NCBI GenBank assembly: GCA_044892505.1
Contig: CM097883.1
Coordinates: 392,212,001-392,276,000, forward strand
DNA: 64,000 nt
Direction: 5' to 3'
From: Schmidtea nova
Taxonomy: Eukaryota
The position numbers and the translations under genes are program-made. Position 1 is the stretch's first letter; each line of letters starts with the position of its first letter. Below the pieces are notes generated by a model. It ran no database searches. It saw nothing but the letters and a program-made list of their open reading frames with translations, and was not told where the DNA came from. Of the stretch, positions 1,434 to 58,278 are shown one piece after another.

Positions 1434-1768
1434 CAGTAATCCCTCTCATAACACGGTAGATTCGTTCCGCATTATAAGAAAACACATAGGAGTACTCCTG
1501 TATAACGCGCCCATAGGACCTCATATAACGAGCTACGTATAAAAGACCTACACAAGTTTTATAAAATAAGTTCATTTAATAACAATAAAATTGACATAAT
1601 GTACAAAGATATTACATACATGCGAAATCAATTATGAACTGTACAAATTATTATGTATCAATTTATTGTGCACAAAAATCCCCACGTTATATTTGGGATA
1701 AACGTCGTGTTTTTACGAGGGATATGAAATCGTGTTATAGTAGTACCGTGTTATATGAAAGATTACTG
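1434..1768. mobile_element. pogo/Tigger-like MITE
   Basis: Imperfect 24-bp TIRs: CAGTAATCCCTCTCATAACACGGT (left, preceded by TA) and the reverse complement of ACCGTGTTATATGAAAGATTACTG (right). Confidence 0.6.
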
Positions 1769-1920
1769 GTCACGCCCGCTTCATAAAATATTTAAAAACT
1801 AATTAAAATAAAGATTAAATAATTAACAGCGGGGCTTGATTGGTGTGAGAGATTGTGGGGCGAGCCTGGAAGCCTGAAGCCGTTAGACGGTTTTATTGAA
1901 ATCTATATAAATCTAATATG
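1767..1920 (+). ncRNA. Spliced-leader cassette copy 1: conserved upstream block + SL exon (1879-1920), no SL intron
   Basis: 1879-1920 GCCGTTAGACGGTTTTATTGAAATCTATATAAATCTAATATG is 42 nt, ends in ATG and differs at 3 positions from the planarian SL as recalled (GCCGTTAGACGGTCTTATCGAAATCTATATAAATCTTATATG). It is followed by CTTAA, not a GT donor. Confidence 0.8.
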
Positions 1921-2343
1921 CTTAAATGATTAGATGTAAATTGCTTTCAGGATGTTGCAATCTTTTATCAAGAAAAGGCTTATATACCGAAAGGTGATTT
2001 CTCATGAATCGTCGTGAAACTCTTATGTTGTTATACCGGGAATAAACGAAATTTTCCATGATTATAGAAAATAATTCTTAAAAATTGTGTGAAAATTGTT
2101 TGCGATTTTTGAATTAGTTTCACAGTCTTTGTGTAAAGTGTTTCTTACTTTTCAGTAACTACATTGTAAATATGATGGTTATTTGCAAATTTTTTAATAA
2201 TAATTTGTGTTTGAGATTCATCATTGAATATGATGTTTGTTCCAGATGGAGTTGATTGGAAAATCTCAGTGAACTTCAATTAAATATGAATAAGACTAAC
2301 GACAGTTATGTTACTGAAACCATGACAGCTTCTGATTCTCTAT

Positions 2344-2920
2344 TTGCCGAATATCAATTTTAATCTAGGTCCTATAGATGACGTTTTAGCTATTGAACTT
2401 GTCACTTCTATGGATCTTTCAAAGAAATATGAATATAAAGTAACTGGATTCCAGGTTAGTGATACAAAACGAATTTATTTACTAAAGATTCTCGATTTTC
2501 AAGATGTTTCGTATCAGTATCGTTCGGAAATACAGCTCTGTAAGGACACTGTCAATGCCATTTGGAATAATAAGATTCCAATGATTTTAAGCCAAGACTA
2601 TCAAAAAAGAATACAAAGGCATTCAACAACAGAACATGGAACGATTGGGGAATTATCTTGCTACAAATTTGTTAAATATCATATCAGAATCTAGATTACA
2701 AGAAAAACAATCAATGCTAATTTCCCACAAACGAATCACTGAGTTGCGTCGAAAGATGTTTCGGATGCTTTCGAAAATCTTTTCCGAATTGAAATTCTCA
2801 TCGAAATTTAATTTGCGGGCAGCCACAATCGAATTGGAAAATTATTTTATTAATAATATAAATCACAAATTAATTATTAATAAATTAATAACCGATTATT
2901 TTCAAATTCAAATTCACTGA
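2344..2920 (+). pseudogene. Frameshifted coding-like segment of unknown family (two overlapping ORFs)
   Basis: ORFs 2344-2694 and 2636-2920 have protein-like composition; possible acceptor TTTGTTCCAG near 2226. No recognisable domain. Confidence 0.35.
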
Positions 2921-4917
2921 TACGGGACTGTATTTGCTGGAAATTCCGGTACATTGGTATATTAATTCGGTGTATTTTAGTATTGTCGGGGGAATCTCTA
3001 ATCGTATCGTTCGAAAGTCAATTTTTTTCACAATGATATTGGTATCGGGTAAACATTGTATGCACGTAAGTAAAATGTCGTCAATATTTGCCCCTAAGCA
3101 CAAAATAATGAAACCGACAAGGTGATATTCAGTTGGCCAATTCGGGTGAATGCTGGTGAAATTTACTGACGGTCTGTCGCCTCCGAATATTTGTACTGGG
3201 GTCGTTGCCTCGCCGTTGATCCCAATGGAACAGAATATGAATACGTCATAGCCTGGTTTTGAAGTAAAAACAACAAGATAGCCCAGTGCGTATTCTGTTA
3301 TGGTATTATTGTAATTGCTCATGATGGAGCGTGGGAAAGCAATTGGGTTAGCATACATGAGTGTGGGGTTCACATCGTCCTGCCTTCCATAATGTTCTGG
3401 AATACAGGCAACCATATCATTTTCGAAAAAATCATACGTTTCAACTTGTGTTTGTTCCGATTTGACTTTTGTCACAAATCTACCTGTTTTCAAATTAAAA
3501 TTGCAAAAAATAAACAATTTTTAACTTCCAATTACGATTTTTATTTTGTTCAAAATTAGAAATTGATTTCCAACTTGATAGGAATAATTGCCCAGATAGC
3601 ATATTATACCCAGGCCAGCACCCGTTATCGTTATATTTTCCGGAATATATAATACATTTGGATTGGAATTGCTTAAGAAATAAAATATTATTAATAATTA
3701 ACAAAATGTAAAGTTATTGTTTCTAGACGCAATTAAATGCAAGTCTTCTTACGTAATCATTTATTTAAATAAAAACGACGATTTCAAATTTCACAAGTTT
3801 GTCGCTGAATATCTAAACAACTGAGGCATTTTTAATTCTAATATTAATGAGAATTCCTTACAATTGTCATAAAGGTACTCAAAATAAAGTTTGTAATTAG
3901 AACCAGCTCATATTTAGGGACTTCGGTATTTTTCTCGAAGTCCCGTGCTTTCATAGTTCTAGCAATTATTGGTACATATCATAAATACCGCTAAAATGTG
4001 AGTACCCGTAACAATCGTCAAGAATTAAAAAATAACCCCCGTAAAAAACACACGGATACATAGTCTGAGCTGTGCCTGGCCATATATTTGAAACATTTTA
4101 TGCCTAACTCAGGGTTGTTACAAGGGTAAATTTGTAAAAGTAACATAGAGAGTGTATATCCCAATGTATATGTTACAGTTAAAGCATCAACTTAGTTAAT
4201 GTAAACACCAACTAGCTAAAGTATACTTTAACTAAACTAATCAGAGAAATTATACACAAATAAATTTATGAATACTTCCATTCATTAACTAGTGAGTATA
4301 TACACCCACTGATTCGCATTAGTGATAGTATTAGTTGATAATTCGAACCTCAACATTTTAAAGACTTGTGCTAGTTGTGTCTACTGCAAATAGAAATCTT
4401 GCGAAATTTACGAAAAATATTATTAAAAAAACATTAATTTATTAATGATAGTTTCTCGTATTTCAGTGGTTTATTTATTATCCACTGTCATAAATGATAG
4501 ATATTTTTTGTTTTTATTTTAATTTAAAAGAAAATACAGACTTATAGCCTAGTTGTTTCATAGTTTTCTAAAATAATATATCTATTTTCGTAAAAAACGA
4601 TTTTCATGATATTTTTATCCGAGAAACTATCATTAATAAATTAATGTTTTTTTAATAATATTTTTCGTAAATTTCGCAAGATTTCTATTTGCAGTAGACA
4701 CAACTAGCACAAGTCTTTAAAATGTTGAGGTTCGAATTATCAACTAATACTATCACTAATGCGAATCAGTGGGTGTATACACTCACTAGTTAATGAATGC
4801 ATTGACTAGATACAGTATGTATCATTTGAAATAATGTATACTTTTACTAAAACAACAATTGAAAGCATGCATCAGCTAGTTAGTGTATACCCTCACTGCA
4901 ATTTATGCTTTGACTGT

Positions 4918-4993
<76 letters not shown>

Positions 4994-7900
4994 ACGGTAA
5001 ATGTATACACATTTACCTGTATATACATTTACCTGGTAATGTACATTTACCGTAACATTAAGAATTATGATAATAACACCAGCTCCAGTAGGTTCCGTTG
5101 AAAGCAAATTTTCTAAATTAAAATTCAATAAAAATACTTTAATATAAAGTTTGGAACAAGAAAGGTCAAAAAGAGTAACTACGTCATCAAGAGAACATAA
5201 AGTATCAAAAGAAATTAATTTTGATGATGTGATTAAGCAATTAGTTGCAAAACAAGTTTTCGGTAATAACTAGAGATACAAAAATATTATGTATCTTATG
5301 TGTTTTAAAAAATTAAAAATATAATTAGAAATACAAAAGAAATGTATGTTTTATTATATTACAGAAATAAATTTGATTAAATAATTAATAAAACTATATT
5401 CATGCATGATTTCTTCCTTTTTTCGGGAGCCACGCACAAACTATTTTTCAGAAGCCCTGANNNNNNNNNNNNNNNNNNNNNNNNNNNNNNNNNNNNNNNN
5501 NNNNNNNNNNNNNNNNNNNNNNNNNNNNNNNNNNNNNNNNNNNNNNNNNNNNNNNNNNNNNNNNNNNNNNNNNNNNNNNNNNNNNNNNNNNNNNNNNNNN
5601 NNNNNNNNNNNNNNNNNNNNNNNNNNNAACTTGGACAAACTTGTTCAAATCTGAAAGTTTTCAATTTTTAGTCTTTCGGTCTGATTTCTTTTTTATTAGA
5701 TTCTTCAACATGTTTTTTTGTGTTTTGTCTTTAAGTTGTCAATAAAATGTTTATTTTTGAATTATAGAATAAAATCGCAACGTGCAACAAATATCCTGGG
5801 TTTGACATTCGGGTTCAATCATTCCTTAGATTATTGGACTTCGACATCAAAGCTTTCATTTGGCCTAACAACCTTGCTTCCTGACGGCGTTTTTGACGAG
5901 CCCTGGCCACTTTGCTCGGCTTATATTTCTTTAGGGGAAGAGGAACTAAGTTTACTGGATTCTTATAATTGTTAAATTCTCGTTTGCTTCATTTAATGGA
6001 GAAAAATTTTGTTAAAAATACAACTTTGGTGAAATATTTTCTCATCTATCATTTGTTTCAACGGGTTTTCGATTCTTCCTTGACGGCCACGCGCTGGGCA
6101 GACTACAACACTAAACATAAGCCGGAAAGGGAGAAATAGTGATCGGGCACAGGGAGCACAGGTAAGGGCAGGGAGGAAGAGGGTAGGCTAGTAAGTAAGT
6201 AAGGTATTAGTGCAATAGTCTTACTCAACTAGGTAAGTAATCTTAATCTTAGTAGGGTACCTAACACACAACAGAGAAATAAGACAATCTAGAAGAGCAC
6301 ACAGCACGAAGAAAAAATTTTCGGCTTTAATGATTTTGATTAATACAAAAAACGTAGATTAAAATTAAATAGATACATATATTTGGAGTATTCTTCCGTC
6401 TTTAATTCTAAAAGATGTTATTTTATAAAATTAATAAAGATTTTAAAAAGTTTATTATCCTTTATCAACTTAGATTATTACCTTTTATAATTTCATAAAA
6501 AATAAATCTTTACTAAGTTTCACTTACAATGGATTTCCTAATATATTGCCAAAGTCGTCCAAGCGTAGAAGAGCAATATATGTTTTAGGAATTGAATAGG
6601 AGTCCACAATGGCTGCAGAGTTATTTCCACTTGTCGTGCAGGTAATCATTTCGCCAGCATCATACGTATTGGGGGGTATTCTAGGCAAACCGTTGGTATA
6701 ACAAAAGGTATTGGACGTTATTTTATCTGCAAGTTAAAAATATTTGGCAATGAAGTATTAAGGCATCTATTACCTGCAACGTACATGTCGATGAATTTAG
6801 ATTTCGACCCTTGACGCTGGCATTCTCCGTGTATTTTGGTTCCGACCCCAGCAGTATTTGGAGTGATAATTTTAATTATTAAAACATTGTTTAAATTTTC
6901 TACTAAATCTGCGCCAGAACTAACGGCCCATTGTGGAGTTATCTCCTTGCAATTGGAAACGCAAGTTATATTTTGAGTTGGGTATACAAGATGTGTTTGT
7001 GATACCTTGCTACCTCTGAGGGATTCAACGCCCATAATTTGCAGCTGAGGAACATCTGTAGAAATTATAAAATATTCACAATTTTTAATTTTAATCCCAA
7101 TTTAGTTTTATGTTACAAAATATCAAGTTTTGTTTGTTGTACTCTGATTCTTTGAATACTAAAAACTTAAATTATAATACAATTCTCCGAAACTATAGAT
7201 CAAATTTTTGTTATATTGATACACGATATTTCGGCACAGCCTTTATCAAGAAATGAACACTTGATAAAGTATGTGCCAAAATATCATGTAATTAACAACC
7301 AAATAAAATTTGATTTATAGTCTTACAAAAATTAATATGAAAATTATTGAATTAAAAATGAGACCAAAGATGAAAACAAAAAATAATTATGATTTCACTT
7401 TCAATAATAAAGTCAATTGTCAAATGAGATTTCGAATTCTTCATAGTTTTATTACATCTTTTAGTACTGGGTATTTGTATTGTCAAGAAAACATATTTAA
7501 CCGGACTTACTAAAGATAAAGGGTCTAAAGGGCACATTCTAACCTTCATGTTTTTTAAAAGGAATAGATAATATATTGTTGCCCCCTAATAAAAAGGTAG
7601 ATTTTTAAGATTATTCGGTTAAATTTATAGATGGAAATCGCGGATAGGACACCTTAATTGATGTCAATTAACCTAAATCTGTTTACAACGTGTATTATTA
7701 AATATTATTTAAATAAAATATTTAAATTGAATATAAAATACTCTTTAAATATACTGTTGCATGTGGACAAATGGAATTTATCTATTAACCATAATCCGTC
7801 CCTCGGGTTTGTTTCTACCCAAAAAAGAATCTTTTTATGGAATTTTTGTNNNNNNNNNNNNNNNNNNNNNNNNNNNNNNNNNNNNNNNNNNNNNNNNNNN

Positions 7901-8525
7901 NNNNNNNNNNNNNNNNNNNNNNNNNNNNNNNNNNNNNNNNNNNNNNNNNNNNNNNNNNNNNNNNNNNNNNNNNNNNNNNNNNNNNNNNNNNNNNNNNNNN
8001 NNNNNNNNNNNNNNNNNNNNNNNNNNNNNNNNNNNNNNNNNNNNNNNNNNNNNNNNNNNNNNNNNNNNNNNNAAAATATAAAATATATTTTTTAATATAA
8101 ATTCATATTTGGGTCTTTTTTGACCCAGGGGACTTTTGTGTTATTTACTTTGAGGTACAAATGAAGGTTTAAAAAATAAAAAAAATTACCTTCATTTGCA
8201 AATTCCATTTGAGCATCGGAACACTGGACTACATAAACTTCATCATCGGCAAGATTCGCATATGTACTGAATTGTATAGATTTCGTTTCCGGACATGCAT
8301 AACTTGGTCTTTTGTCTATCCATCCATTAAAGGATAAGCATTTGGTCAGTATATATGCTGATGAAGTCGTAGACTTGGCAATTTGTATGATAAATGAATT
8401 AATTGGAGAACTTTCGTGATACACACAGTGAGTATACGTTTCACCAGGTTTCAATGAGAATTTTGGAACAGCGCACGTTCCGTCAAGGCAAAGTTTGATA
8501 TCATAAACACTTGTTACCAAACGAT
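2885..8525 (-). CDS. Multi-exon gene encoding about 5 divergent Ig-like (Cys-pair) repeats; 5' exon(s) not located
   Basis: Exons 8525-8190, 7055-6774, 6726-6528, 3671-3526 and 3483-2885 join with GT..AG introns in compatible phases (1,1,2,1). They give an uninterrupted 1562-nt frame (about 520 aa) ending KIIGY*. Confidence 0.75.
4171..4921. mobile_element. Foldback element with TGTTAC...GTAACA ends and 180-bp inverted arms
   Basis: Arms 4279-4458 and 4620-4799 are reverse complements (1 mismatch seen). Outer ends are TGTTACAGTTAAAGCAT / ATGCTTTGACTGTAACA; the element abuts (TA)n. Confidence 0.8.
4921..4990. repeat. (TA)n microsatellite
   Basis: Perfect dinucleotide run. Other (TA)n runs at about 17990-18044, 46325-46376 and 53392-53448. 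Confidence 0.98.
4990..5057. mobile_element. 68-bp micro-element with perfect 16-bp TIRs
   Basis: TGTTACGGTAAATGTA ... TACATTTACCGTAACA; interior made of ACATTTACC repeats. Confidence 0.7.
5079..5270 (+). mobile_element. hAT transposase C-terminal dimerisation-domain remnant
   Basis: Translates PAPVGSVESKFSKLK...SLEQER...EINFDDVIKQL, matching the hAT ERSFS/QERL/FDDVI pattern. Confidence 0.7.
5461..5627. other. Assembly gap (N-run); other gaps at about 7850-8072, 16882-17043, 20260-20541, 62543-62670
   Basis: Runs of n in the sequence. Confidence 0.99.
7219..7290. ncRNA. Inverted (divergent) pair of U3-A8 variant minimal hammerhead-like motifs
   Basis: Minus 7250-7219: C-TTGATAA-A-GGC-tgt-GCC-GAAA-TAT-C-GTGTAT. 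Plus 7256-7290 is a decayed copy: ACAC-TTGATAA-A-GTATGTGCC-AAAA-TAT-C-ATGTA. Confidence 0.55.
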
Positions 8526-10081
8526 CTAGAATAATTGATGAGAAGATTTTAGATAAAAGATATTTTTTTATAAATTTATTTGATTTAAGTGACAAATTAC
8601 AAAAAGTATTTATTGAACACTAAAACTCATTTTGACTGGTTAAATATTTTAAACGGGTCCATGCTATTTAAAGAAAGCACATTTAAAGGATAAATAAAAA
8701 TTTAATTATTAACATTATCGTCTCTGTTTTTATATGAATCCATATATATATATATGACAGAATTAATCATTAATCTATTTTGTTGGGCTTTAGTTTTAGG
8801 TATAGAATTTCCCAGGTAGTTCTACTGTCAAAATTAAAATTAAATTATTTCTGTAAAAATTTGCGTTTATGTTTTCAACATGACTATTTGCATGACTACG
8901 CAAAGTTGAATATTAAATCCAGATCAGATAGAAATTAATGTCTTATTTCAAACAGTTCATTATGTATTTTGGGCTTATCACGCATTGGAACTTGTCAATT
9001 AAATTCAGAAGCACAAAACAAATTCATAAAATTTTTTCAGTAAAATTAATAATGAAAAACTAAACTGGTTTTCATTTGTTATTTTTGGGCTGATAGAAGT
9101 GGAATTTTTGATTGTTTTAATGCGTTGAAAATGCAAACGCACTTCAATAAGTAAATTCAAAATCCAAGAAAACACTAAATCACACAAAATAAAAGCAGTA
9201 CAAGAAAATCAGTACAAGAAAATCAGTAAACATGATTAATTAAATTATCAGAATTTGAAAGATCACAAGCACTTCAGAGTAGGCATGCAAATCGTATTTT
9301 ATAAGTCTTTCAGGATAGAGAAAATGATAAAAAAGAAATATCTCAAAAGAGAGCATATAATTTGATTGTAAGTTGAATTTACATATGAAGGGCCGCATGA
9401 AATCGGATGAGGAAAGATAATTGCTATTATAAAAATATAAAAGGCATGATCAAGAATAAAAAATATTACCAAAATGAAGAGAATAACTAATTAAAGTTAT
9501 AGTAAAAAAGCCATTGAAATATCGTTAAAATAACAGAGATATGACTCAAAACATATTTAGAATAAATTGAAAAGTTTTAAGCTATCAATTAACTCGCGCA
9601 AAACGGCATTATGATGAATATGCACGTAATTTCAGTGAATTAATTAAAAATTAACTTTATCGAGAGAAAACTATATTATTCATTTTAGTGAGTAAGTATA
9701 CACAATAAACTCTAACATTTTCTTATTAATTAACATTGTGAACAGAAAACGTGACCATAGCATTTTAAAACAGTATCAATACGACACTGAAAATCATTAA
9801 ATCAACTCTTCATTTGTCGGCCAACTTATTTTCATTTTGTATTTTCAGATCGCTGTGCTAATTTTTAATTTAATTTTTATTGCTATTCAGGAAACAATAG
9901 TTATGAATTTTGAATTGTTTAGTTATAATTTTAAAACTTCATTTGTGTGCAATAAATATTCTAATTTATTCGTAGTTTTTGTTTATTTTGTTTAATCATA
10001 TTAATTATTTTATGCTCTAGCTTAGATGGTTTCCCTATTTTAGAAGTGGTAAATTGAACATAAATAAGATTGAATCTTTTT

Positions 10082-10127: not shown

Positions 10128-10135
10128 AAATCTCC

Positions 10136-11640
10136 ATGGTCTTCACCTTTACATCTAGTCCCAAAAAAGACGGTGCTTTTCGTCCTTGCGGGGACTATCG
10201 AAATCTTAACACTATTCCCGTACATTATTCGTACAGCACGCCATTATTCGGTGATATTCTTCACCATTTGACAGGTGCCAAAATCTTTTCCGCAATCGAT
10301 CTTGTTAAAGCATATCACCAAATTCTTTTGAGGGAGTCTGACATCGAGAAAACAGCCATATTGACTCCAATCGGCCTGTTTGAATACGTCTGCATGACAT
10401 TTGGTCTTCGCAACTCTGCACAGACATTTCAAAGGTACATTGACGAAGTTTTGATGGATTTGCCTTTTGCAATTCCATACATAGACGACATTCTCATAAG
10501 GTCTATTGACATAGTGACACATAAACTACATTTAAATATGACCTTAAAGACACTAAATAAAAATAAACTTAAAATCAACACCGAAAAATGCATTTTCTTT
10601 CAACAAGAAGTTCGTTTCTTAGGTCAATTAATTTCCGAAACTGCAATTTGACCTCCTCTAGATAGACTTGAGACAATTTCCAATTTCCCACTAACGAAAA
10701 CCGTATCTCAATTAAGGATATTACTTGGAACAATTAATTATTGTCATCGTTTCATCTCAAGGGTCTCCGACATCTTATCACCTTTATCTGGTTTAGTTTC
10801 TAAACTAAAAAAATCTCTTGTTGCTTTACAATCATTCGAAAACGCGAAACAAACTCTTTCTAGCATTCAAAGCCTCGACTTTCCTAAAAAAAGATTTGCT
10901 TTTGAATTTAACTACTGACCTTCTAACGTAGCTATTGGCGCAGTTTTACATCAAATAAATAACAAAGTTTCGGAACCATTAGAGTTCTTTTCCAAAGAAT
11001 TATCCTCTACCCAACAGAAATATTCCGCTTTAGATTGAGAACTTCTTGGTATTTTTCTCTCGGTCTAGCACTTCAAACACTTGCTTGAATGTCGATCTTT
11101 TACAATTTTCACTGATCACAAACCTTTAACTTATTTTTTTAAAATGAAAGACCCATCTCCTCGACATAAGAAACAAATCAGTTATATCTCCGAATTTTTT
11201 GGCGAGACATGCCACATTACGGGCAAAGAAAACGTCATTACTAATTGTTTTTCACATAGCACTAATGCTGTTTTTCATGATCCAATGTTTTCATTAAACG
11301 ATCTTAGTGAAAATCAATCTTTAGCTAAAGATATAGCTTCAATAGGCGACAACCACGAAATCGTTGATGGAATTCACTTTGATTCATCTTTATCAGGTGT
11401 TTTGCGGCCAATTTTACACGATTCATTACGCAAAATAGGTTTCCATTCGGTACACGATTTACATCACCCAGGTTCTTCTGCCACTTTTAATCTTTTGCAT
11501 TCGTAAGTTATTTGGCCAGCCATGAGACATGATGTGAAACTTTGGGTAAGTTAGTGTATTTGCTGTCAACAGCACATGATAACTAGACACACCAAACCAC
11601 CTATTATAAATTATCCAACTGGGAATGGGTTTGATGAGTG
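10136..11640 (+). mobile_element. Ty3/gypsy pol remnant (RT, RNase H, integrase zinc-binding start), gag/protease deleted
   Basis: KKDGAFRPCGDYRNLN, IDLVKAYHQI, MTFGLRNSAQTFQR, YIDDILI (RT); TDHKPL (RNase H); HDLHHPG and a CxxC-like remnant (integrase). Stops and frameshifts. Confidence 0.95.
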
Positions 11641-15535: not shown

Positions 15536-16420
15536 TTATTCCCTATGAACCGTAATTGGTGTTTTTGTGGTTGACGTTAACTTGTAAGGGGCTTCAATTA
15601 GGATTATTCCATTGTCAATTAAAGTTGCTTTGAGATTATCAGGATCAACATTTGAAGGCAAGTCATGCTCGTCATTGAATTCTTTCATGTTACTGTAACC
15701 ATTTGGTCCGGATTCTTCATGCTTTGCTGAAATGATTACTCGATATCCCTTGGTTTTGACATTCAAATCTTCCGCTCTAAAAATTGGATCTATGGCGATT
15801 TCTTCAACGTAGTTCTTTGATTTGTCAGTAATTAGAATTGGGGATCTCATTGAACTGCGTAGACTGCTTGAAGAACAATCAAAAGGACTTAAAGATCCGT
15901 TTAGTGTCCGGTGTCCCATTCCACTAGTGCTAAATGATGACGAATAAACCGGGGATGAGATTTGTGGGGATATAATATTGAAATTGGTTTGTTGAGGAGA
16001 TTGTCTTTGAATGGTAATCGGTCGACGAATTGGCGGATAAAGATTTGAATAGGTCTGTGGGAGAATTGGTATTCTTATTTCCAACAAACCGTTGTCAGTA
16101 TAAACGGATCGCATTTCTTTCTTCAAGTCAATGTTACTTGGCAAACTTACTTCCTTTTTGAATTCTTTATATTCCGATTCTTCGGTGTTTCCATGAACGC
16201 CTTTTTTCGAACCAGATTTCGATTGTTTTGCTTCGATAATCAGCATATTTCCTTGCTGTTCGATCCGGATATCCGAGGAAGAGAATCCATCAACATCCAC
16301 AGTGAAAATATAATCGACATCTCCATTGGTCGACTTTTCATATCTCGGTTGAATAGATCTTTCAAAACTGTAGCTTGGGGTCAATGAAGAGAACTTCTCA
16401 AATTCCATACTTCGATTCAT
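15536..16420 (-). CDS. Small heat-shock protein with two tandem alpha-crystallin domains (flatworm p40/major-egg-antigen-like), 294 aa, intronless
   Basis: Domain 1: DVDGFSSSDIRIEQQGNMLIIEAK...EFKKEVSLPSNID...GLLEIRIP. Domain 2: FRAEDLNVK...IISAKHEE...EFNDEHDLPSNVD...GIILIEAP. Confidence 0.92.
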   Translation of the reverse strand: MNRSMEFEKFSSLTPSYSFERSIQPRYEKSTNGDVDYIFTVDVDGFSSSDIRIEQQGNMLIIEAKQSKSGSKKGVHGNTEESEYKEFKKEVSLPSNIDLKKEMRSVYTDNGLLEIRIPILPQTYSNLYPPIRRPITIQRQSPQQTNFNIISPQISSPVYSSSFSTSGMGHRTLNGSLSPFDCSSSSLRSSMRSPILITDKSKNYVEEIAIDPIFRAEDLNVKTKGYRVIISAKHEESGPNGYSNMKEFNDEHDLPSNVDPDNLKATLIDNGIILIEAPYKLTSTTKTPITVHRE

Positions 16421-17985
16421 TTTAGTTCTTTAGTCGGTTTAATGAATTTCTTAATCACGGTCCCAAAATATATAGTAAATCGGTTTCACATTTACAATTT
16501 CAACTATTCAAAGCGTGCTGAAGATTTGTGATGTAAAACTTTGGCACACTTCATTCCAAATTTACTAAAATAAATATCATTTTCAGTTTTGTAAAAATGA
16601 AATAACGATAATTTATAAATTATGCGCATTCAAAGTTGACATTCATTACGTAACCGGCCTGATTCATTAGCACTTTGAAGAATGAATAAAATGTGCACAT
16701 AACCTGGTCTTTCACTTTGCACGCACATTTATCAGCATCGACATTTTTGGGAGAATTCTGATTTTTCATTTGTTAGATAATCGTTAGAAAAAGAGATTTG
16801 TAAACAATTTTTTAGAAGTTACTTTTTTAAAATCAAACAAGTCGAAACAACAATAAAAATATATAATAATAGAAATAGATGNNNNNNNNNNNNNNNNNNN
16901 NNNNNNNNNNNNNNNNNNNNNNNNNNNNNNNNNNNNNNNNNNNNNNNNNNNNNNNNNNNNNNNNNNNNNNNNNNNNNNNNNNNNNNNNNNNNNNNNNNNN
17001 NNNNNNNNNNNNNNNNNNNNNNNNNNNNNNNNNNNNNNNNNNNATTACAACATTACCAAGCAATAATTCAAAAATTAACGAAATTAAAAAATAGACAATG
17101 CATTTTTGAATTTTTTACCAGTGATTTATTTAACTTTATTTCAACCAATTTTGTGTTATTTTGTGCTCAATAAATATGTTTATTGTTAATATTGTTCTTG
17201 TTTTCATATTTATACATAATACATATGAATTATAATTTTACCTTCCCTAATTATATGCGAGCCGATTGTTACCGATTTACTAGCACAGGACATGGGAGAG
17301 AACATTTTATTAAAACTACATAACATACTGTTAAAATTATTATTTTTTGCAGTTCATAAAAGTATATTTTCAATGTTATTAAATTCCATATGAAGATCAA
17401 ACAGAGAAAGACAATTTTATTTATTTTATTTTATATTTTTATATTTTATTTATTATTTTATTTAATATTTGACGACTGGTATGAAAACTAATATTATTTA
17501 TACTAAGCTTTACTAAACAGATTTAGATATTACATTAATACGAAAACATTGCAGTCAATACCAAAAGAGTTATTAAAGGTACCTCTCTTGTCTTGCTTTA
17601 CAATCTGAAAATCTTTTATTATATCATTTTCATTCAACTTATCAATGAGTTTTATGGATATCGTTGCAAATGTTGTTGATGTTTCTTGAGACATAGCTGA
17701 CCTTAAATAGCTTTCAATTTTGAAAAAAATTCTTTCCCCGAAGCTACAGATGCGTGTAATGTTAGATAAATGCATATACCGATGATAACATTTGGAAACG
17801 AAGAAATTTAATTATTTTGGAGGATATAGTTCAATACCGTGAATTTATCCATTTCACCTTTTATGAAAGGCTTCAGGATTTTAAATTTGATTAATTGAAG
17901 TTAAAGTAATAATATGTTTAAATTTAATAAATTAAATACCTGACGAATGAGCGATAACAAAATATAACTAAAATTATAAAAAATT

Positions 17986-18046
<61 letters not shown>

Positions 18047-18114
18047 GTATTTCATTGAAATGTCTCACCTAAAATAATTAGCAAGCTTATACTATAGAAA
18101 AATACAAACCTACC

Positions 18115-18263
18115 TGGTCGCGCCGCTTATTAAAATATTTTTAAAATTAATTAAATAATAATTAAAATAATTAATTGGGTGCCTGATCGCTGTGAGAGAT
18201 TGTGGAGCGAGCCTGGAAGCCGTAAAAACGGACTTATCGAAATCTATATATAAATCTTATATG
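18115..18263 (+). ncRNA. Spliced-leader cassette copy 2 (SL-like exon 18219-18263), no SL intron
   Basis: GCCGTAAAAACGGACTTATCGAAATCTATATATAAATCTTATATG preceded by the same upstream block as copy 1; followed by ATGAAATG..., not GT. Confidence 0.75.
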
Positions 18264-18477
18264 ATGAAATGTCATCTTTGCTTAATAATTTACCAAACAA
18301 TAATCATCATTGCACTGGACTGCCTTCAAAAACTCATTGCCTATGATCACATTCACCATCCAGTAATTCCTGCAATATCGACATCAATCACACTAACAAT
18401 TTCAATGATGCTCTCCAGGTGAAAAAAGAAGAGTACCTCAGCAAGTCAGAAATCTCAATGAGAAATATGATTGCATC

Positions 18478-19060
18478 ACGTCTGTGTGCGCGACAGTGAT
18501 GTTTTAGTGTTGATGGTGATTTATTTCTTGGCGTGCGCACACAGACGCGTGGTGGAATTTCTCGTCGAATTGAAATGGGTCTGTTTTGGAATTGTGAATC
18601 GATTGGAAAATATCATTTTGTTCGGCTGAACTTTTTAATTGGAATTTATTTGGGGTTTTTGAATTAAAAACTAGAGTCTTCAGATTGTTTATCTGATTTG
18701 AATTGATTATTTTTTGGCGGGACTTTGGAATTTAAGAATTAACTTAGGAATTTTGTTTATTCAGATTAATTTGCATTTATTTGGCAGAATTTAACTTTGA
18801 ATTGAATTGCTGATTGTGATTTTGAATTGGGAAAACTTTTAATTAAATTAGGTTGTTTAACTGCGGAATTTATTGTGAATTTTTCTAGAATTGGGTTTTG
18901 TTTAGCTGGTATTGGATTTAATTTCAGGAATGGGTTGTTTCGGTTTCAATGATGTTTTGAAGTGATGAAATATATTTCGAATTGAATTTATTAGAATCTG
19001 ATTGCATTTGTGGATAACTAGGTTTTAAATGAATTAATTGGATTTTGTTTCGTTTTCATT
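18478..19060 (+). repeat. GCGTCTGTGTGCGC-motif repeat family with G/T-rich, C-poor tract, copy A
   Basis: Motif at 18479 and inverted at about 18535, followed by a TTTTGGAATTG-rich tract like those at 36680-37290 (-) and 62836-63220 (+). Confidence 0.6.
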
Positions 19061-19105
19061 TGGGAATTAATAAATGTCTTCGAATTCAATTGCTTTTGAT
19101 CGTAG

Positions 19106-19305
19106 TATGACAATTTTTCACCCGAAGGCAGATTATTTCTTGCCGAATATGCGTCTAAAGTGATTGCGTTAGATGGATTACTTTCTGTGGATGTTCGAGA
19201 TAATGATTGTGGCGTAGTTGCTTCACAAAGATAAGTTCCAGGTAAAATGAACAAACAGAGTTCAGCTACAAGATTATTTAACATTAATGAAAGTACCGGT
19301 TGCGT
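19106..19305 (+). pseudogene. Cadherin-repeat gene fragment
   Basis: YDNFSP...LSVDVRDNDCG...R*...LFNINESTGCV shows the cadherin DNxP, VxxxDxDxG and FxIxxxTG motifs, with one stop. Preceded by AG. Confidence 0.55.
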
Positions 19306-19902
19306 TAGGACCGGAATGATTCCTGATTGCGGATCGCAAGTATGCCGTGCACAAATGGAAGCTGCACGATTTAAATTCGAAATGTCCGGTGACATGACTT
19401 GTCGATGTATTGCCGAAATTAATCAATCTTACACTCAATCAGCTTCAATGATCGCATTGTTATATGATGAGGAGAGCAATCGGAGCTGGACGCGGCGAAC
19501 CATGAGGAAAAGCTATGAGGAAAAGAAGCTTCGTAAAAATAAAGAATGGTCGGAAAGCAATCGGAGCTGGACGCGCCGAACCACTACCTGTACCTTATTC
19601 ATTGATGTTTTACTCAATCGTATCATTTATTATGTCGATGAAAAAGAGATAGAAAAAAATAATCACACAAACACAAAACATAGAAAAAACAGATGTAAAC
19701 TTTCAAATGCGTTAATTGTTTCATTCTATAGTCTCACACAAAATTTTAATCATCAGAAAAATTGAAAATTAAAAATGGCCGATAATTTTTTTTAATAAAT
19801 TTGAGGAATCTACCTTGAGTGTTCGTGAAAATGATGAAATATCATTGTAAGAAATATAATTTAAGTTATAATAAATTTTTATTTTCACAGAATTTAAGAA
19901 AA

Positions 19903-31882: not shown

Positions 31883-31945
<63 letters not shown>

Positions 31946-34900: not shown

Positions 34901-35088
34901 ACAGAAAATTAAATAATCTCAAAAATAACAAATCTGTTCTTAAATTAATTTTTCATTAAAATTAAAATATATTTTTCTATATTTCTAAACATTTCTGAAG
35001 AATTTTGATTGCTCCATATTATTTTAAACGATATAACAATTTTACTGTAGAACTGCCTGACTGTGTCTAAATTATACAGGAATGGTAA

Positions 35089-35233
35089 TGGTTGCGCCCG
35101 CTTAATAAAATATTTAAAAAATAATTAAATAAAAATTAAATAGTTAAAGGCGGGGCTTGATTGGTGTCAGAAGTTGTGGGGTGAGCCTGGAAGCCGTTAG
35201 ACGGTCTTATCGAAATCCATATAAATCTTATAT
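35089..35233 (+). ncRNA. Spliced-leader cassette copy 3 (SL exon 35193-35233), no SL intron
   Basis: GCCGTTAGACGGTCTTATCGAAATCCATATAAATCTTATAT has 1 mismatch to the recalled SL over 41 nt, with the same upstream block. Confidence 0.85.
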
Positions 35234-35242
35234 TAAATATGT

Positions 35243-35455: not shown

Positions 35456-36183
35456 TTTCGGTTTTGTGACTTCGATTCATTTTTTAAATAATAAATCATT
35501 TGGAATTTACCAACTTTCTCGGTATGGATGTGTGGGAAATCGACAAATTCAACTTAGGGGGATTTGAATCATTTGGTTAGCGCTGCATCTTTGGAATTCC
35601 TTGGTCAATTGGACAGCCAACGGTGGGCTGGTTCAACCAGGTAACTCCACAGTCCTTAAATATGTTTGGCTTCTAATTTAAATTTTGATATCACAATAAC
35701 TCATAACCATTAAAAATTTTTCCATAAATAAATTTTTCCATATTTTTTCAATATAAATCAGAATAGTAATTTCTATAATGTTTTATTGCAAGACTCAACC
35801 AAAAATGATACTTAACGATGTTATTAATTTATTAAAACAATGTTGCCTTTATAAAATCAATAATTAGTGGTTTTAAATTCATTTAAACAAATCTTTCACA
35901 TGGTAATATTTTTGCTTAGATTATTGTTTGCAAAATTATACAGATCACTATTTGTTAGTGCATTGCTTTTTATTATAACGATTTCAAGGAAGGTAGAAGC
36001 AATCTGCTTTAATATAGTGAAATCTATGAATTACTGAGAAAATAGAATAGTGGTCATCTAATTTTCCTCATTCATTAATGTTTATAAATTTTTATCCTTC
36101 ACATTGTTATTTTAAGGAGGCCATTTAATTTGGTCATTTAACACAATTATTTTCAGGTAATTTAAATGCTACAATCCAAAACG

Positions 36184-36215
<32 letters not shown>

Positions 36216-36679: not shown

Positions 36680-37290
36680 TCCAGATAAATCCATTTTAAT
36701 AAACTACCAAATTCCAGAATTAAACATCTCAAAATCCTTCATATTTCAAAAATGAATTCAACTTAAAATCACCTCAATAACGAAAGAATCAATTTCGAAA
36801 AATCCCCAATACCAAAAAATCAATTTATTCAGCAAATTTCGAAAATCCAGCAATTCCAATTTCCAAATTGGAACGAATAAACAAAAAAAACCAGAAATCA
36901 AATAATCACAAATTCGAAATTCCCCACAATTCCAATTAAATCTCCAACAAAGAACCAATTAGAGCCCAATTAAAAAATCCCAAAATTTCAATTAAAAATT
37001 GGAATTTTAAAACAACTGATTTCCAGATAAATTCGATAATTAAAAATCAATTTTGCATTTACAATTCCTCCAGGAATACCTTGCGCACACAGACGCTGAC
37101 AAGAAAATTTATATTAAAGAAAATATGCGTACACAGACGCGATAATGATGAAAAGTAGAAAAACGCACACGAGTGACAAATAAGAAACAGCTCTGCGCAT
37201 ATAGACGCGAGAGCTCACCAAAATCACTAAAAGCGCACACGGACGCGAATAAATAGCCAAAGCTTGCTATAAAGTTTGCTATAAGTAAAT
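36680..37290 (-). repeat. GCGTCTGTGTGCGC-motif repeat family, copy B
   Basis: Four GCGCACACAGACGC-like motifs at 37084-37246, an AGCCAAAG..TTGC 5' signature, and a C/A-rich tract on the + strand. Confidence 0.7.
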
Positions 37291-42526: not shown

Positions 42527-42557
<31 letters not shown>

Positions 42558-46318: not shown

Positions 46319-46379
<61 letters not shown>

Positions 46380-51718: not shown

Positions 51719-52660
51719 CTAAAAAAATTGCACAATTTTCTCATCGTCTTTCCACAAAAATGGTAAGTAAGGTCTATCTTCCTCCGCAACTCTTTTTTGC
51801 TGATACATTTCTGCGATATCGCTTACTATTGCTACCTTAAACCGTCTGAATCTTAACAAAATTTCGAAAAGATCATTTTGCAATTTCGGTCCTATTTCCA
51901 AAACATCATTTAAACACTTTCCATTACATCTTGCTGCAGCGTCAAATACTATTCGAACTTTCGACGTTTCGTTTTCCTTTCTTACAATGGGAAAAGGAGG
52001 CAATATCCACTTTGTTCCTGCTTCTTCTTGTTTACTTAACCTCCGAATGTAATTTTTACTTTCATGCTCCATCAAAATTCTTTCATATTCCTTCTTCAGG
52101 TCTTTATTTTTATCTAATTTTTGCTTTAAATCTTCTAGACGTTTCATCGCCATCTGTGTATTGTTTGATAAATCTTCTTTTCCAGATTTCCACGGTAAAC
52201 TCAGTTGGTAAAACATTCCCCTTTTAACTATTTTCTCTTCCGTAACTCTAATAATTTCAAGATCTCCTTTGGTCAAGAACACAGGGTTCTCCTTTAAGTC
52301 TTCGATTTCGCAGAACATCTTTACCTGCCCAACTAACTCCTCGTCTTTTGATAAATATGTTTGAACAAAGTTGGTTTGGTGGGTTAATGACAGGCCCAAC
52401 GTATTTCCACCTACACATGTCCAAAGAAGCGGAGTTAATCTAGCGATTGGTTCGTCCATCTTTTCATCCACTTCCTTCAGCGCTCTTTGTAAACCTAAAT
52501 AATCAGCTCCAATAAGAACCTGCACCACTTGTCGTTCGTAAACCATTGGAAACCGTATATCTTTTAGATGTTCCCATTGCCATTTTTCGTTTGCCCAATT
52601 TATTACTCTCATTTCCCCGGTTACACTTTTCACCGCTGCAGTCGTAAACTCTTTCCTCAT
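51719..52660 (-). mobile_element. BEL/Pao pol fragment (protease end to RT start)
   Basis: VLIGADY, PIARLTPLLWTCVG, SKVRIVFDAAARCNGKCLNDVLEIGPKLQNDLFEILLRFR, SDIAEMYQQ. Confidence 0.93.
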
Positions 52661-52764
52661 CTTTTAACCAAACACACTAAAGAAAATTTCATTCCAAAAC
52701 ATCCGTTAATCAAAAGTGAAAATAAAATTCATGTTCTCATTCTATAACCGATAAGTCTATCGTT

Positions 52765-53286
52765 TCAGTTGTCGTCTTTCGCAGCTGGCACAGGAGTCAT
52801 GCTTCCAGACGCCGCTTCCGTCGAGTGCGAACTCCATCGCTTTGGTTGAGTAGAGGCTGGAGCTGAATTGATAACTCTGGACGACATCGTTTCGCCTGCC
52901 CGCACTGGGAACAACTCCAGTTAGGGGAACTACAACTTCGATTGTATTGCTGACACGATGCCCGCGTCAACTCGTAATTTCGCTATTTCGGCATCTCGGT
53001 TTCGGATGGTAACGTTGAGAGCCCTCAGTTGTAGTGCATCTTCCGCCACCTGCTCATGGAGAAGTTTGAGCTGCCTTTTCATCTTCTCGGTGCCGTCCAC
53101 ATTTGTCTACGTGGCTTCGATTTTTCGGCACCGAGAACGAAACTTCTCCATACGTTCGGTCATCGCTTTTAACTCGGTCTAGAATAGCTTCCTTTCCTTC
53201 TCCATGTCCGATAAACGGACGGACGTACTCCGAATACTTTGGTTTGTCTCCTTTAATTGTTTGAGTATTTGTAATTTCGATTCCAT
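52765..53286 (-). pseudogene. Coiled-coil ORF remnant (probably TE ORF1/gag-like)
   Basis: MESKLQILKQLKETNQ...QLRALNVTIRNRDAEIAKLRV..., with in-frame stops. Confidence 0.4.
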
Positions 53287-53388
53287 TATTTTAAATTCAT
53301 AATTACACCATCTCGAGCAAAAGAATCTTCGATCGCTTTTTAAAAACAGCATCATTCCTCAAGCAGACCTGATCGCGATTCAATTCGG

Positions 53389-53451
<63 letters not shown>

Positions 53452-55779
53452 TTAGAAAGAATTAGTAGTCAGGATATTCCACTCCTGTAATCACAACCTA
53501 AGTGGCGCTTATTTCTACTGTTAGCCGAATTTTTAATGAGATATTTAGAATCCAATTTCCACATTACTGAGTTTTTAAAAAAATTTATTTAAAAATGGGT
53601 CTTCTCGAAATAAGTGATTATACCCAGTTTTAATTAAAATTTGTCTATTTTTCCTTTTTTGAAATTTTTTTTCTCCAAATTTTTGCCGAGGCTATAGTAA
53701 CTTTGAAACTATTTAAATTTCGATACTGAACTAAATCATTTTAGGAATTTTTAGAAAACCTCGGTGACCCCTCTTTAACATTAAAATAAGTTATCATTAC
53801 AATTTCTATGTAGAAATTAATATGTAAAAACAATTTTTAGACTTTTTGCTTCTAAATCTAGCTCACAACCGTATTGGTTGCACTATAATATGGTTAACTT
53901 GTACCCATAATATAAGATATTGATAATTTTCTATATTTTGTTGTAGTGGTGAATTTGATTTCATTTGAGTCCGATGAGACGTAGATAGGGGTACTTCACC
54001 AACATAAAATGGATTTTCTCCGCTATCGTTCCCTTGGAATTTCCTAGTGTGACACACATTGGTTCTGTACTATACAGCGCATGCCAAGTGAACAGTTGAG
54101 CGACCTGTGTGGTCACTATTATTTCATTTTGCATGCTCGAGTTCTCGGTCGATAGAAGACTTTATTCAGGTCCTATTTGGTCTAGTTTTTTCTACGGTCT
54201 TTTTCAATTTGATTGTCGATATATTAATCGAAGTCTTTTTATAAAATAAACTAGTTTTAAATTAATACTAAGTCAGAAAAAACATTTATTTCATTAACAT
54301 TACAGGATTAATAGTCTCGAACAACTGCTCTTCGGATAATCTGCTCAACCAACATTTGAATCCCAATCTTTTTGGTGTAAGCCCTTCTTTCTCTGCGACG
54401 TCTAGCCCCCATTTGGTTACGTCTTTTGGTCTTGACACCGGTCTGAGTGGGTTGCGTTGTTTGCACTGCTTGGTCGGCATCTACTGTTCTGGTGGTTATG
54501 GGGGAATCCGTCTGCATTTCTCGGATGACGGGTGTTGAATGAATCCACTTTGCCAAGATAATCGGGCAGATCTACGCTTTCAGGTGTTAGTGCACAAAAT
54601 CCTTTGAAACGGATTCGAAGCACGCTTTTAACTCGCATTTGGTAGCCGCGAGTTCTAGAGACTGTTCCTTTACTATATTCGCTCGATCTTTTGATAGTTC
54701 TGTTTCATACTGGCTGAAGCAAACCAGGTTGGCGACCATCCCTTTCAACCTATAGTTTTCGCATTTGAGTACCCTATACATTCGCCGGTTCTTGGCGGAA
54801 TCATTATAGGTGGTTCCCATACCTGTTGAAATAAATAATATATAAACCTATAGTTATATCCGCTCTCACTGCATGCCATTTAGTCTTACAAATCTCATAT
54901 AACTTGTTAGATCAGAAATTACAACTACACCAACATAGGCGTGTTTACTTCTCAATTCGCTAGTTTGGGTTCAAGACGCCCCACCACCGCTGTTTAAGTC
55001 TTTGCGTGGTTCCACTCGGGCTAGATCTATTACAACAAACCGACGGATCTCGCCGTCGAAAAAAGGTCGCTCTCTAACTTAACTCACATATATTAGAGGC
55101 AATAATAAAATCTAAGAAATTTATTATAATTTGTTAATTAACATGATTAAACGAATCACATGACAATAATGCACATTGCAAATAGATGCGATGTCCTTTA
55201 GCTTTATGATAGGTGAAGGAATCTTAGTAAAAATCTTTGTAATTAATAAGTGGTTTGGTCAGGAACCTCTGGAGAGAATGATCTCGGAGGGCCGGGCCCA
55301 AAACATTCGATGGTTGAAACTGAATATTTCTTTGATGGAAATGCGTGACTTCCTAGCGGAAGTCGAGTACGAGTTAAAGACAAAGGGTCAATCCTTGAAC
55401 ACCAATTCTTGACCATTCTTTATGCATTGTGGGGCTCCCAGTAGGATAAAACGCTTTTGATTGAAGACGTTAATGTTGATAGTATTGAAATGCAGTACTC
55501 ACTTCGGTATTCCGGAGTCATTTTTGATTACGTCATTTTTGATTTCGGGGAATCTTCAATCGTCGGGCTGTGGAGGGGAACAGGCCATTTGGGTCCGCCT
55601 TCTTGCTATATTTCCATCTATTTGTCCCCTTCCCAGACATGGAATGGCGCTCACTCGAAATTCTTGGCGCTTCCCCTCCATATTGAAAATGGTTATTTCT
55701 GGCGACGCTCCCACCGCCACCGTCTCATCTCGGCATCCATTCTGTGGTGATGTTAGTTTGGCGGTCACGCCGGAGTGTA

Positions 55780-57110
55780 TGTAAAATTGTGAAATAAAAT
55801 TATTTTCATTTTGATTATGAAATTTTAATTAATTTGGATATTCAAATATGCAAATTTTCGAATTAATTACAGTTAGCAAGGAGGATTACTAAAGAAATTA
55901 AAGAAAAAACATTAAAAATTATGCATCAAGAAATAAAAAAGAAACCATAAAATGTAAGAATTTGTTAATTGAATAAATATTTTTTAAATGAATTTGGTTT
56001 ATTCAAAATTAATTACTGTTGTCCGGGAATTACTAAATAAATTATTCTAATACAAACTAATATTCAGTAATTTATAATAGTTTGTATGGGAAAACAATGG
56101 AAAATCTGAAAGAGAATGAATTTAAGATTATGTTCAACTGAGAAAAAACTTATGCTGTGAGGATACCTAAATAATAAATAATATTATAAATTATTCGAAT
56201 AACTTGGGGAAAACCCGATTGGTGATTGAACTATCATTCTGGAACTTTGGAAAGAAAACGGAAACTCAAAAAATTGAGAAATGAGAAAAGGGTAACAAAT
56301 TAAAAGAAATTAATCAATTAAAAAGAAAAAGGTCATTATAATTAATAGGTGCAAGAAAACAACATGGAATTCATGAAATGGGAAAACAAAAACAAAACCG
56401 GTATCGTGACAGATGTCAAAGATAACACGGGAACTGAGAAAAACATTGGGGAAATTCCAGGGGAAAAAAAGGAAAAAAGTAAATTGTCCCGAATGCCGAA
56501 CGGCTATGGGCTATACGGGAGCAAAAAGCAAATTGGAAATGCCAGTGGCAGGAATATGAGAAAAAGTAAAGCACCACTAGTGCCGGAGAATGGCAAACTA
56601 TGAAAAGGGAGAGAACAATTTTAGACAGAAGTTGCCGAGAAAAGATTGAAGAGAAAAATTTGTGAGAAGTATTTGTGAAACGATTTTTAACAGACATTTT
56701 GTGTAGTAGTTTGAAAAAATTTTCAGAGAAAAAATTGATCGAAAAAGTTTATTGTGAAATCGATTATTGTAAATTATTGGAAGTTGATTTTAATAAATTT
56801 GTTGTTAAGTGTTTAAGCAGAATTTCAAGTCAAAACAAAGGGAACAAATTGTTGGTTACCCATTAATAAATACACACCAGTAGTTGGTGATCATAGCTAG
56901 AATACTATTCCTCACAATCGTGTTGTAATAAGCAATGTATAATTGCTTCTGATTATTGATTGAATATATCAGTGTAATTGTGAAACCAGCTGTGATATCA
57001 ATAAAGATTCCTGTCGTAATTGTTATTATATTGATAAATAAAGCACGCATTCGGAGTCAGAAGTTTGATATAGTATTTTTAAACTTCACCGGCAACCCAA
57101 TAACTTAACA
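55780..57110 (+). mobile_element. 5' LTR (family 1) of a gypsy element
   Basis: TG...CA ends, homology to 30507-31422, followed 5 nt later by a PBS. Confidence 0.85.
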
Positions 57111-57115
57111 TATTT

Positions 57116-57133
57116 TGGTGAGCCCGACGTGAT
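57116..57133 (+). promoter_or_regulatory. Primer-binding site for tRNA-Trp
   Basis: TGGTGAGCCCGACGTGAT is complementary to ATCACGTCGGGCTCACCA, a tRNA-Trp-type 3' end. Confidence 0.8.
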
Positions 57134-57439
57134 CAAAGTTGGTGAAGAGATTATTTTATAAAAATATTTGTGCCATATTCCGACGTGAAGACATTGTTGA
57201 ATAAAAATCTTTGTACCATATTCCTACGTGATCCAAGTTGGTGGAAAATTATTAAATAAGATTTATTGAAAAAAAGAGTGAAAATAATTTGGAATTAAGG
57301 AAAATTTTTCAAAAAAACTGACAAGGAAAATTATTGATTGTAGTAATAATTTTGAAATTTAGATTTTGTGTAATTTGAGAAACTAATTTATTAAACTGAA
57401 TCCATATAATTTACGAAGCAATGGGAAAGAAAACCCATA

Positions 57440-57770
57440 ATGAATAGTGAAGATTTACTAGTTTCCGTTGACAAAGAAAGATATGATTTTGCCAGTTCTC
57501 AAAGATTACCAATAAAGCAATACAGAGGAGATGCACTTTCATTTTTCGATTTTATAAATGAATATTATATGTATGCTACAGGTTATGGGTAGACAAAGTT
57601 AAAAATTATACAGAAATTTGCGTTATATTTAACTGGAGTTGCTCGTGATGCATGTTGTAAGATTGACAAAAGGAAAATTGGAGATGAGTGTTCGAAATTA
57701 AATGATTCGATGGAAGATAAATTGGTATGCAAAGAAGTTAATCTTGGGATTAATTGTTTTCAGTTTTTCC
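57440..57770 (+). pseudogene. Gypsy gag N-terminal remnant
   Basis: ...YRGDALSFFDFINEYYMYATGYG*TKLKIIQKFALYLTGVAR...; truncated. Confidence 0.7.
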
Positions 57771-58210
57771 ATTTGTAAGGATAGTTTGTTTAGATTTTGT
57801 TTCTCTATAGACTATTTGGTTTCTTCCTCTTTTAAGTTAGTATAGGTTTTATAATTTCTCTCGCTAGTCGTTTCTGTAGTTTTTTCGTTTGTAAGAATAA
57901 TTCAATTTCAAATTCCTTGCAGATATTTCGATTTGTCGTTTGAGTAATTTTAAATTGCTTTTGATATAATATTAGTCTTTCCATATAATATTTAAAAAAT
58001 CTATTTAATTAATTTGTGTTTCTAATTCCTATAGTAATTTTTTCCATTACTATAGGAATTGATTTCTTTATATTTAAATTCCATTTGAATATTTATGTTT
58101 AATATTTTTATGTAACCACAAATATAATGAACACAGTGGGGAAACACACATGGAGGAATCGAAATAATAATAAAATTAGCAACTCAATACAATAAATATT
58201 AAGTAACCGT

Positions 58211-58278
58211 GGGACTTGATTGGTGTGAGAAATTGTGGGGCGAGCCTGGAGGCCTGAAATCTGTGTAAACTTTATATG
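58211..58278 (+). ncRNA. Spliced-leader cassette copy 4, internally deleted
   Basis: GGGACTTGATTGGTGTGAGAAATTGTGGGGCGAGCCTGGAGGCCTGAAATCTGTGTAAACTTTATATG. The 5' half of the SL is lost between two TGAA microhomologies present in copy 1. Confidence 0.6.

Follow-up and report, generated by a model that had tools for sequence, protein, structure and literature searches.

Several retroelements are known to be tied to spliced leader (SL) sequences: NeSL-1, SLACS, CZAR, and CRE are non-long terminal repeat (non-LTR) elements that insert into SL genes. We describe here a family of LTR retrotransposons that, like these elements, is physically tied to an SL exon; unlike them, it is dispersed away from SL genes and is flanked by integrase-type target-site duplications. 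The family is represented in a stretch of 64,000 nt from Schmidtea nova (contig CM097883.1, positions 392,212,001 to 392,276,000 of the forward strand; this whole stretch is 'the window', and its own numbering is used below). A preliminary description of the window recognized four cassettes in which a 'block' of ~110 bp leads into a ~42-nt SL exon (the 'leader') and then into unrelated sequences, and it pointed to NeSL/SLACS-type non-LTR elements; we saw no such link, since the copies are dispersed and have LTR-type pol, a CA end, and a 5-bp duplication. As delimited here, the block (~104 bp) and the 42-nt leader open the LTRs of a BEL/Pao family, together taking up ~146 bases.

The BEL/Pao LTR retrotransposons (Belpaoviridae) are among the closest described systems, for example Sinbad of Schistosoma mansoni (PMC554778) and the planarian Flow families (PMC3118150); as far as the available text of these reports extends, they share with the present family LTRs that end TG..CA, a triple Cys-His box in gag, a single frame in the order protease–reverse transcriptase (RT)–RNase H–integrase, and BEL-specific Pfam domains. 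However, the LTRs of Sinbad are 386 bp long, with no host pieces mentioned in that text (PMC554778), whereas the LTRs here are 0.55–3.4 kb mosaics that contain the SL exon. The long frame of the present family begins in a host piece.

The nearest described system is the capture of mRNA by LTR elements. In LTR-mediated retroposition, retrocopies made by template switching replace internal parts of the reading frame, with ~6 bp of similarity at junctions that can lie anywhere; a BEL element flanks one of the published cases (Tan et al., 2016; PMC5131818). In the accessible parts of that report, these retrocopies, like the sequences described here, are partial, intron-less mRNA pieces within an LTR element, include multi-gene mosaics, and have undergone secondary amplification; in contrast, the planarian pieces are inside the LTR, are found at both ends of the element, are kept in solo LTRs, and start at a fixed 42-nt host tag. 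Replacement of internal reading frames by leader-linked pieces was not seen in this family.

Genomic mRNA copies that begin with a leader are known as SL relict retrogenes in dinoflagellates (PMC5585692); the available text describes complete genes whose leader relicts are decaying and whose vehicle is not known (an LTR element was suggested there, without direct evidence), whereas here the pieces are truncated and the vehicle is visible. In parasitic flatworms, 597 loci with partial leaders at LTR elements or long interspersed nuclear elements have been read as integrated trans-spliced element RNAs (PMC12582326), and the RNA of the LTR element Cer1 can receive a leader, with the genomic-length RNA avoiding trans-splicing (PMC3315495); unlike the present family, neither is described, in the text available for each, with a fixed leader inside the LTR or with capture of host mRNA. 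Further literature was compared to the same partial extent (PMC10899757, PMC4558846, PMC11410931, and bioRxiv 2024.03.13.584568). We found no publication that reports a leader at a fixed place within an LTR, in a search that most subscription papers lay outside, and supplementary repeat libraries or Repbase may hold the family. A BEL element of Caenorhabditis elegans, Cer7, is said to carry a leader-like exon and could be a precedent. The leader-tagged capture by LTRs is real and large, and it is apparently undescribed.

The cassettes in the window and in the genome

The four copies are on the + strand at the places recognized earlier, and they share the block and the SL exon (pairwise BLASTN E-values from 2e-41 to 6e-10, identities of 76–84%). 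As also noted earlier, none of the four has an SL RNA gene's GT intron behind its leader, and the three full copies continue into sequences unlike one another. The extents require revision, that is, copy 2 reaches 19583 and copy 3 reaches 35639. The features, all on the + strand, are:

1767–1878 (+): 5′ block of the LTR of copy 1, starting TGGTC, with an additional 7-nt unit directly before the leader
1879–1920 (+): SL exon of copy 1, with no intron after it
1921–2812 (+): captured host-like pieces of copy 1, the first of the commonest class (12 of 106 cassettes)
18110–18114 (+): left target-site duplication of copy 2, CTACC
18115–19583 (+): complete solo LTR of copy 2, 1,469 bp, TG..CA, with a perfect 5-bp duplication
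18219–18263 (+): SL exon variant of copy 2, 45 nt, with small insertions
18264–18470 (+): mosaic of captured pieces in copy 2
18474–18549 (+): conserved inverted repeat (predicted hairpin) in copy 2, also in the LTRs of leader-less BEL relatives
18550–19070 (+): T/G-rich spacer of copy 2
19071–19583 (+): second captured piece of copy 2 (broken proteasome alpha subunit; Pfam PF00227, E 5.5e-9) and LTR end
19584–19588 (+): right target-site duplication of copy 2, CTACC
35084–35088 (+): left target-site duplication of copy 3, GGTAA
35089–35639 (+): complete short solo LTR of copy 3, 551 bp, TG..CA
35089–35192 and 35193–35234 (+): block and leader of copy 3, followed by a captured piece
35640–35644 (+): right target-site duplication of copy 3, GGTAA
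58165–58278 (+): decayed fragment, copy 4, with block and internally deleted leader

Using copy 3 as the query, a first look at the 1.25-Gb assembly gave 2,022 candidate cassettes, 40 of which were scored; the downstream partners were sorted in 106 sampled cassettes (vide infra). All 30 loci fetched show the block starting abruptly at TG, and their flanks are unrelated except that two loci have a purine tract upstream in common and two have ~0.9 kb of flank in common. A polypurine-tract query gave 405 candidates; the tract lies immediately before the block in 29 of the 30 loci checked. A 3′ part ending in CA is common to many copies and matches the 5′ end over a short inverted stretch; beyond these shared 3′ ends the flanks are unshared (30 of 30). 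Both LTR ends were found in 21 of 40 loci tested; target-site duplications, which the preliminary description suggested looking for, flank these solo units (17 are perfect 5-bp duplications, two have one mismatch, and two are shifted by one base). The LTR ends are followed by the primer site TGGTAGCAGAG, and the primer is presumably the initiator Met tRNA. The 6-bp inverted ends prompted us to consider a DNA transposon or Pack-type unit, which the primer site, the purine tract, and the paired LTRs exclude.

In copy 2, the 3′ end matches the 5′ LTR ends that adjoin the primer site in full elements, and the first ~39 nt of the mosaic are common to copies that run on into a RING-finger start, which we take to be TRAF-like. 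Copy 1 is older and decayed; it is similar to another decayed copy as far as 2812, and a downstream search established neither a 3′ LTR end nor a target duplication. A candidate end at 3530 (CA with a perfect duplication) was rejected as unlike the known LTR ends. The final G of the leader is replaced by T in copy 3; copy 4 lacks the middle part of the leader, and no LTR ends were found for it.

The block contains GC-box-like and inverted-CCAAT-like words, and the leader contains a TATA-like word, as read from the sequence. Many copies lie within (AAT)n microsatellites (L205, L209, L210, L055, L063, and L071), and one copy has a second partial block and leader ~390 bp behind the first (L272:1033-1501). 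The hairpin sits between the first capture and the T/G-rich spacer and is common to several BEL families (predicted energy −31.7 kcal/mol in L210); its arms also occur elsewhere in the window, at 37081–37141 (+) and near 62939–63009 (−). No Rfam model matches the window, and no tRNA was found in it. Four open frames in the window are named here by resemblance only: we take 51722–52663 (−) to be a BEL protease-region remnant, 10130–11503 (+) Gypsy-type RT/RNase H remnants, 15539–16429 (−) a small heat-shock-like gene, and 63220–63825 (+) an ABC-transporter-like gene.

Full elements and their class

The primer-site query gave 489 candidates, from which 20 regions were fetched: five contain both LTRs, five only the 3′ LTR, six only the 5′ LTR, and four neither. 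The five complete elements have LTR pairs of 1.29–1.99 kb that are 2–7 substitutions apart and internal parts of 3.2–3.6 kb in which pol has collapsed to remnants. A gag query (150 of 1,874 candidates scored) led to three further elements with gag-pol frames of 1,925–2,572 codons and LTR pairs that are 99.1–99.9% identical; these frames rule out a family that is non-autonomous only. The paired LTRs end TG..CA, and the target duplications are perfect in four of the five and two of the three elements; in each group, the duplication of the one remaining element matches over 4 bp.

Pfam identified DUF1759, RVT_1, Peptidase_A17, Integrase_H2C2, and DUF5641 in one gag-pol frame, and the best database matches to the element protein carry the same domains; the identity is 52–62% to 13 other BEL loci of the genome and at most 57% to database proteins. 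We regard the assignment of the element to the BEL/Pao LTR retrotransposons as practically certain. The near-identical LTR pairs and the long frames indicate a family that was copied recently, that is, one that is recently active. Three tandem arrays of the element were observed (G000:C1:610294783-610322181, L143-L145, and G000:C2:434490409-434500920), with periods of ~4.4, 5.9, and 5.0 kb.

A long frame (L133:3238-6108, − strand; also L317-L318) starts in the host piece in the LTR, crosses the primer site, and then passes an HSP90 piece and ubiquitin before it enters gag. HSP90 and ubiquitin are the only internal host pieces; the leader-linked pieces are inside both LTRs. The ubiquitin could act as a cleavage spacer in the long frame. 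Three database relatives (P0002, P0003, and P0013) likewise combine a host domain, ubiquitin, and BEL domains.

The genome also contains leader-less BEL/Pao families (L219-L245 and L294-L306). The primer site is common to 12 of 13 loci, and the LTR pairs are 96–100% identical (12 of 13 loci); their LTRs hold host-gene pieces, and their long frames start inside those pieces.

The leader and the host SL RNA genes

The 42-mer is identical to the exon of the genomic SL RNA genes L215-L217; in these genes the 42-nt exon runs into GTAC, and a U-rich Sm-like site and then a 3′ hairpin come after it (fold z = −4.2). It also matches the SL of freshwater planarians, and we identify it here by the genomic SL RNA genes that carry it; the earlier identification as the SL exon is borne out. 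A second type of SL RNA gene (L323 and L324) has a GT donor, an intron, and an Sm site; only the first 19 nt of its leader are common with the first type. Exact patterns retrieved three gene copies of the first type and two of the second, and the two types are ~0.4 Mb apart on contig C2. In metagenome contigs the leader pattern had no matches.

The preliminary description interpreted the block as SL-gene upstream DNA, so that mRNA fragments would be placed behind an SL-RNA promoter. The cassette aligns with the five SL genes of the two types over the exon only, the remaining matches being short and AT-rich; by this alignment, the block is not SL-gene promoter DNA. It is the 5′ end of a BEL/Pao LTR, that is, the transposable element terminus that the description itself had set against its proposal.

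The sequences captured behind the leader

The 106 cassettes in our census were picked by similarity and are non-random; some of them come in pairs from the two LTRs of a single element, and others from fetched regions that overlap. The leader is whole in 86, extends to within 3 nt of its end in 12, is truncated in five, and is absent in three; the sequence that follows falls into up to 61 classes. Of 48 class representatives, 29 have an ATG within their first 15 nt, compared with 11.3 in shuffles (maximum 21 in 1000 shuffles) and with 9–19 of 48 in later 15-nt windows; over 30 nt the signal is weaker (33–36 of 48, depending on the representatives, and 32 of 48 in one later window).

A Pfam scan was performed with 35 queries (29 first pieces of other copies and the pieces in the window). 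The first pieces match the N-terminal parts of UFL1, LSM14, LEM, TRIP12-like, BRCT0, RING, mS39, and HAP1_N, as well as RRM; another captured piece has a CNH domain, and 20 of the 35 queries have no Pfam match. The captured piece of copy 3 has no Pfam match and no homologues at E 0.001, and the commonest first piece (the class of copy 1) also has no homologues at E 0.001; both results are weak evidence. The 'LYR-like' reading previously offered for the piece in copy 1 gained no Pfam support, that is, the 23-aa piece has no match and a sister copy has a weak match to Sec8_N (E 0.001). The captured sequences are likely to be the starts of host messenger RNAs. Secondary amplification is evident for one of them: 22 of the 25 matches to a HECTD1/TRIP12-like capture are at least 99% identical.

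Parent genes were sought for three captures. The CNH (Vps39-like) capture has its parent at locus L263, where an AT-rich upstream stretch terminates with AG exactly preceding the first captured base; 504 of 531 positions are identical, and the sole gap is a 44-nt GT-AG intron that is missing from the capture. This comparison identifies the capture as the start of a reverse-transcribed, spliced mRNA, and we infer that L263 is trans-spliced at that AG. No parent was found for the HECTD1/TRIP12-like capture (the three least similar of the 25 matches were checked, and all are cassettes) or for the capture in copy 2 of the window (40 of 59 candidates scored). The earlier suggestion that the downstream sequences are copies of spliced mRNAs starting at an AG acceptor therefore holds for one capture, with parents not found for the other two.

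A proposed mechanism for leader-tagged capture

In LTR reverse transcription, the first DNA strand copies the RNA at its 5′ end and then needs homology at the 3′ end. A trans-spliced mRNA might be packaged together with the element RNA; minus-strand synthesis from the tRNA primer would copy the 3′ part of the LTR and switch, at a variable point, onto the mRNA. On reaching the mRNA 5′ end, the new strand would terminate in the leader complement, which could anneal to the leader of the element's 3′ LTR and be extended through the block and the polypurine tract. The new piece would then be present in both LTRs, integrase would insert the copy, and later recombination would leave solo LTRs such as copies 2 and 3 of the window. 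The leader could be the R region of the element or lie within U3, with an identical product either way, and it could first have been acquired as one captured mRNA end or via trans-splicing of the element's own RNA.

If the strand switches template and then lands on the leader, the 5′ junction should be fixed and the 3′ junction variable, introns should be lost, LTR pairs should be identical, and both leader types should be present; all five are observed. The 5′ junctions carry the whole leader; a 3′ junction was viewed in one case, without a donor LTR. The LTRs agree in eight of ten two-LTR elements examined. The variant leader in four LTR copies with three different captures is the exon of the second SL gene type, so both host leader types occur at the same LTR position; a single ancestral leader inherited with the block cannot explain this, and the leader has likely been recopied from mRNA. 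Among 47 representatives, the leaders differ by 5% on average from the gene sequence and by 9.3% from one another, compared with 13% for the block, which is suggestive only of recopying. On this combined sequence evidence, we think that RT probably leaves for a trans-spliced mRNA during LTR synthesis and re-enters via the shared leader. Joining via leader homology, as the preliminary description envisaged, thus remains the best mechanism; its target is the LTR, not the SL genes.

Several observations weigh against this mechanism. The parent was found for only one of the three captures sought; the leader is truncated or absent in eight of 106 cassettes; the 61 classes are an upper bound from a non-random census, and several merge on reading; and the gap between 9.3% and 13% is small and could reflect selection. 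The LTRs are discordant in two elements, an outcome to be expected from the simple model only if a second template or subsequent recombination is invoked: in E101 (L131-L132) the blocks are identical at 79 of 87 positions and otherwise only the last 376 bp are common, and in E102 (L133-L134) the blocks are identical at 112 of 113 positions and the rest is unrelated except for a T-rich spacer, with a target duplication matching at four of five positions. Finally, host pieces are also found in the LTRs of the leader-less BEL relatives, and some of these pieces appear to be 5′ ends; capture therefore does not depend on the leader, which is likely an accelerator and positioner acting on a capture-prone lineage.

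The leader could also be a passenger, that is, the same family captures mRNA 5′ ends, landing occurs by a few bases at the end of the block (GCC is shared with the start of the leader), and the leader is merely carried along. In 14 of the 89 junctions that could be scored, an additional 7-nt unit ends immediately in front of the leader, as slippage there would give, and this point appears to mark a slippage site; the leader-less relatives attach host pieces to a short LTR start, and the second leader type shares the first 19 nt only. However, 98 of the 106 cassettes have a single leader, in one and the same place, and the resident 42-nt match far exceeds the median of 6 bp given for such switches in the available text of PMC5131818; we consider a passenger leader unlikely. 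Alternatively, free cDNAs of trans-spliced mRNAs might recombine into an already integrated LTR via the leader, followed by amplification by ordinary retrotransposition. E102, with its nearly identical blocks, unrelated remainders, and imperfect target duplication, fits such conversion, although two co-packaged RNAs would also yield discordant LTRs; with the concordance in the eight other elements and, in the one case viewed, no long homology to anchor the far end of the capture, we find conversion quite improbable.

Recombination of cDNAs into SL RNA genes, behind the SL promoter, would explain why the leader is a true SL exon and why one capture is a spliced mRNA start; however, the DNA upstream of the five SL genes does not match the block, and the block follows a polypurine tract and opens LTRs with target duplications, so this chimera is very improbable, and it is refuted for the SL genes found here. 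Assembly chimeras, suggested by junctions known from the assembly alone, are scarcely credible: one and the same junction is found at numerous scattered loci (one capture has 22 copies at ≥99%), and single elements show it in each of their two LTRs, between target duplications that match.

Implications

If reverse transcriptase does re-enter via the leader, the host SL may have been adopted as the strand-transfer homology (the R region or its equivalent), so that any trans-spliced mRNA may replace the element's 5′ end. With each round of replication, the LTR may then take up a new gene start; ~2,000 gene starts, promoter-linked and exon-shuffled, would be spread in this way, and host pieces would enter the element's Gag fusion protein. 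We are evenly divided on this extended proposal. It would connect trans-splicing with LTR reverse transcription, processes between which no connection is known: a universal 5′ mRNA tag would be a ready homology for the first strand transfer, making a rare capture of mRNA routine. The family provides a visible vehicle for leader-tagged retrocopies, a vehicle that is not known in dinoflagellates, and may explain the many leader-only loci at mobile elements that were discarded in SL surveys of flatworms. In this animal, ~2,000 copies of a leader joined to a gene start would confound SL-acceptor calling, gene annotation, and the interpretation of RNA interference and small RNAs; the captures themselves are a dated record of germ-line trans-spliced mRNAs.

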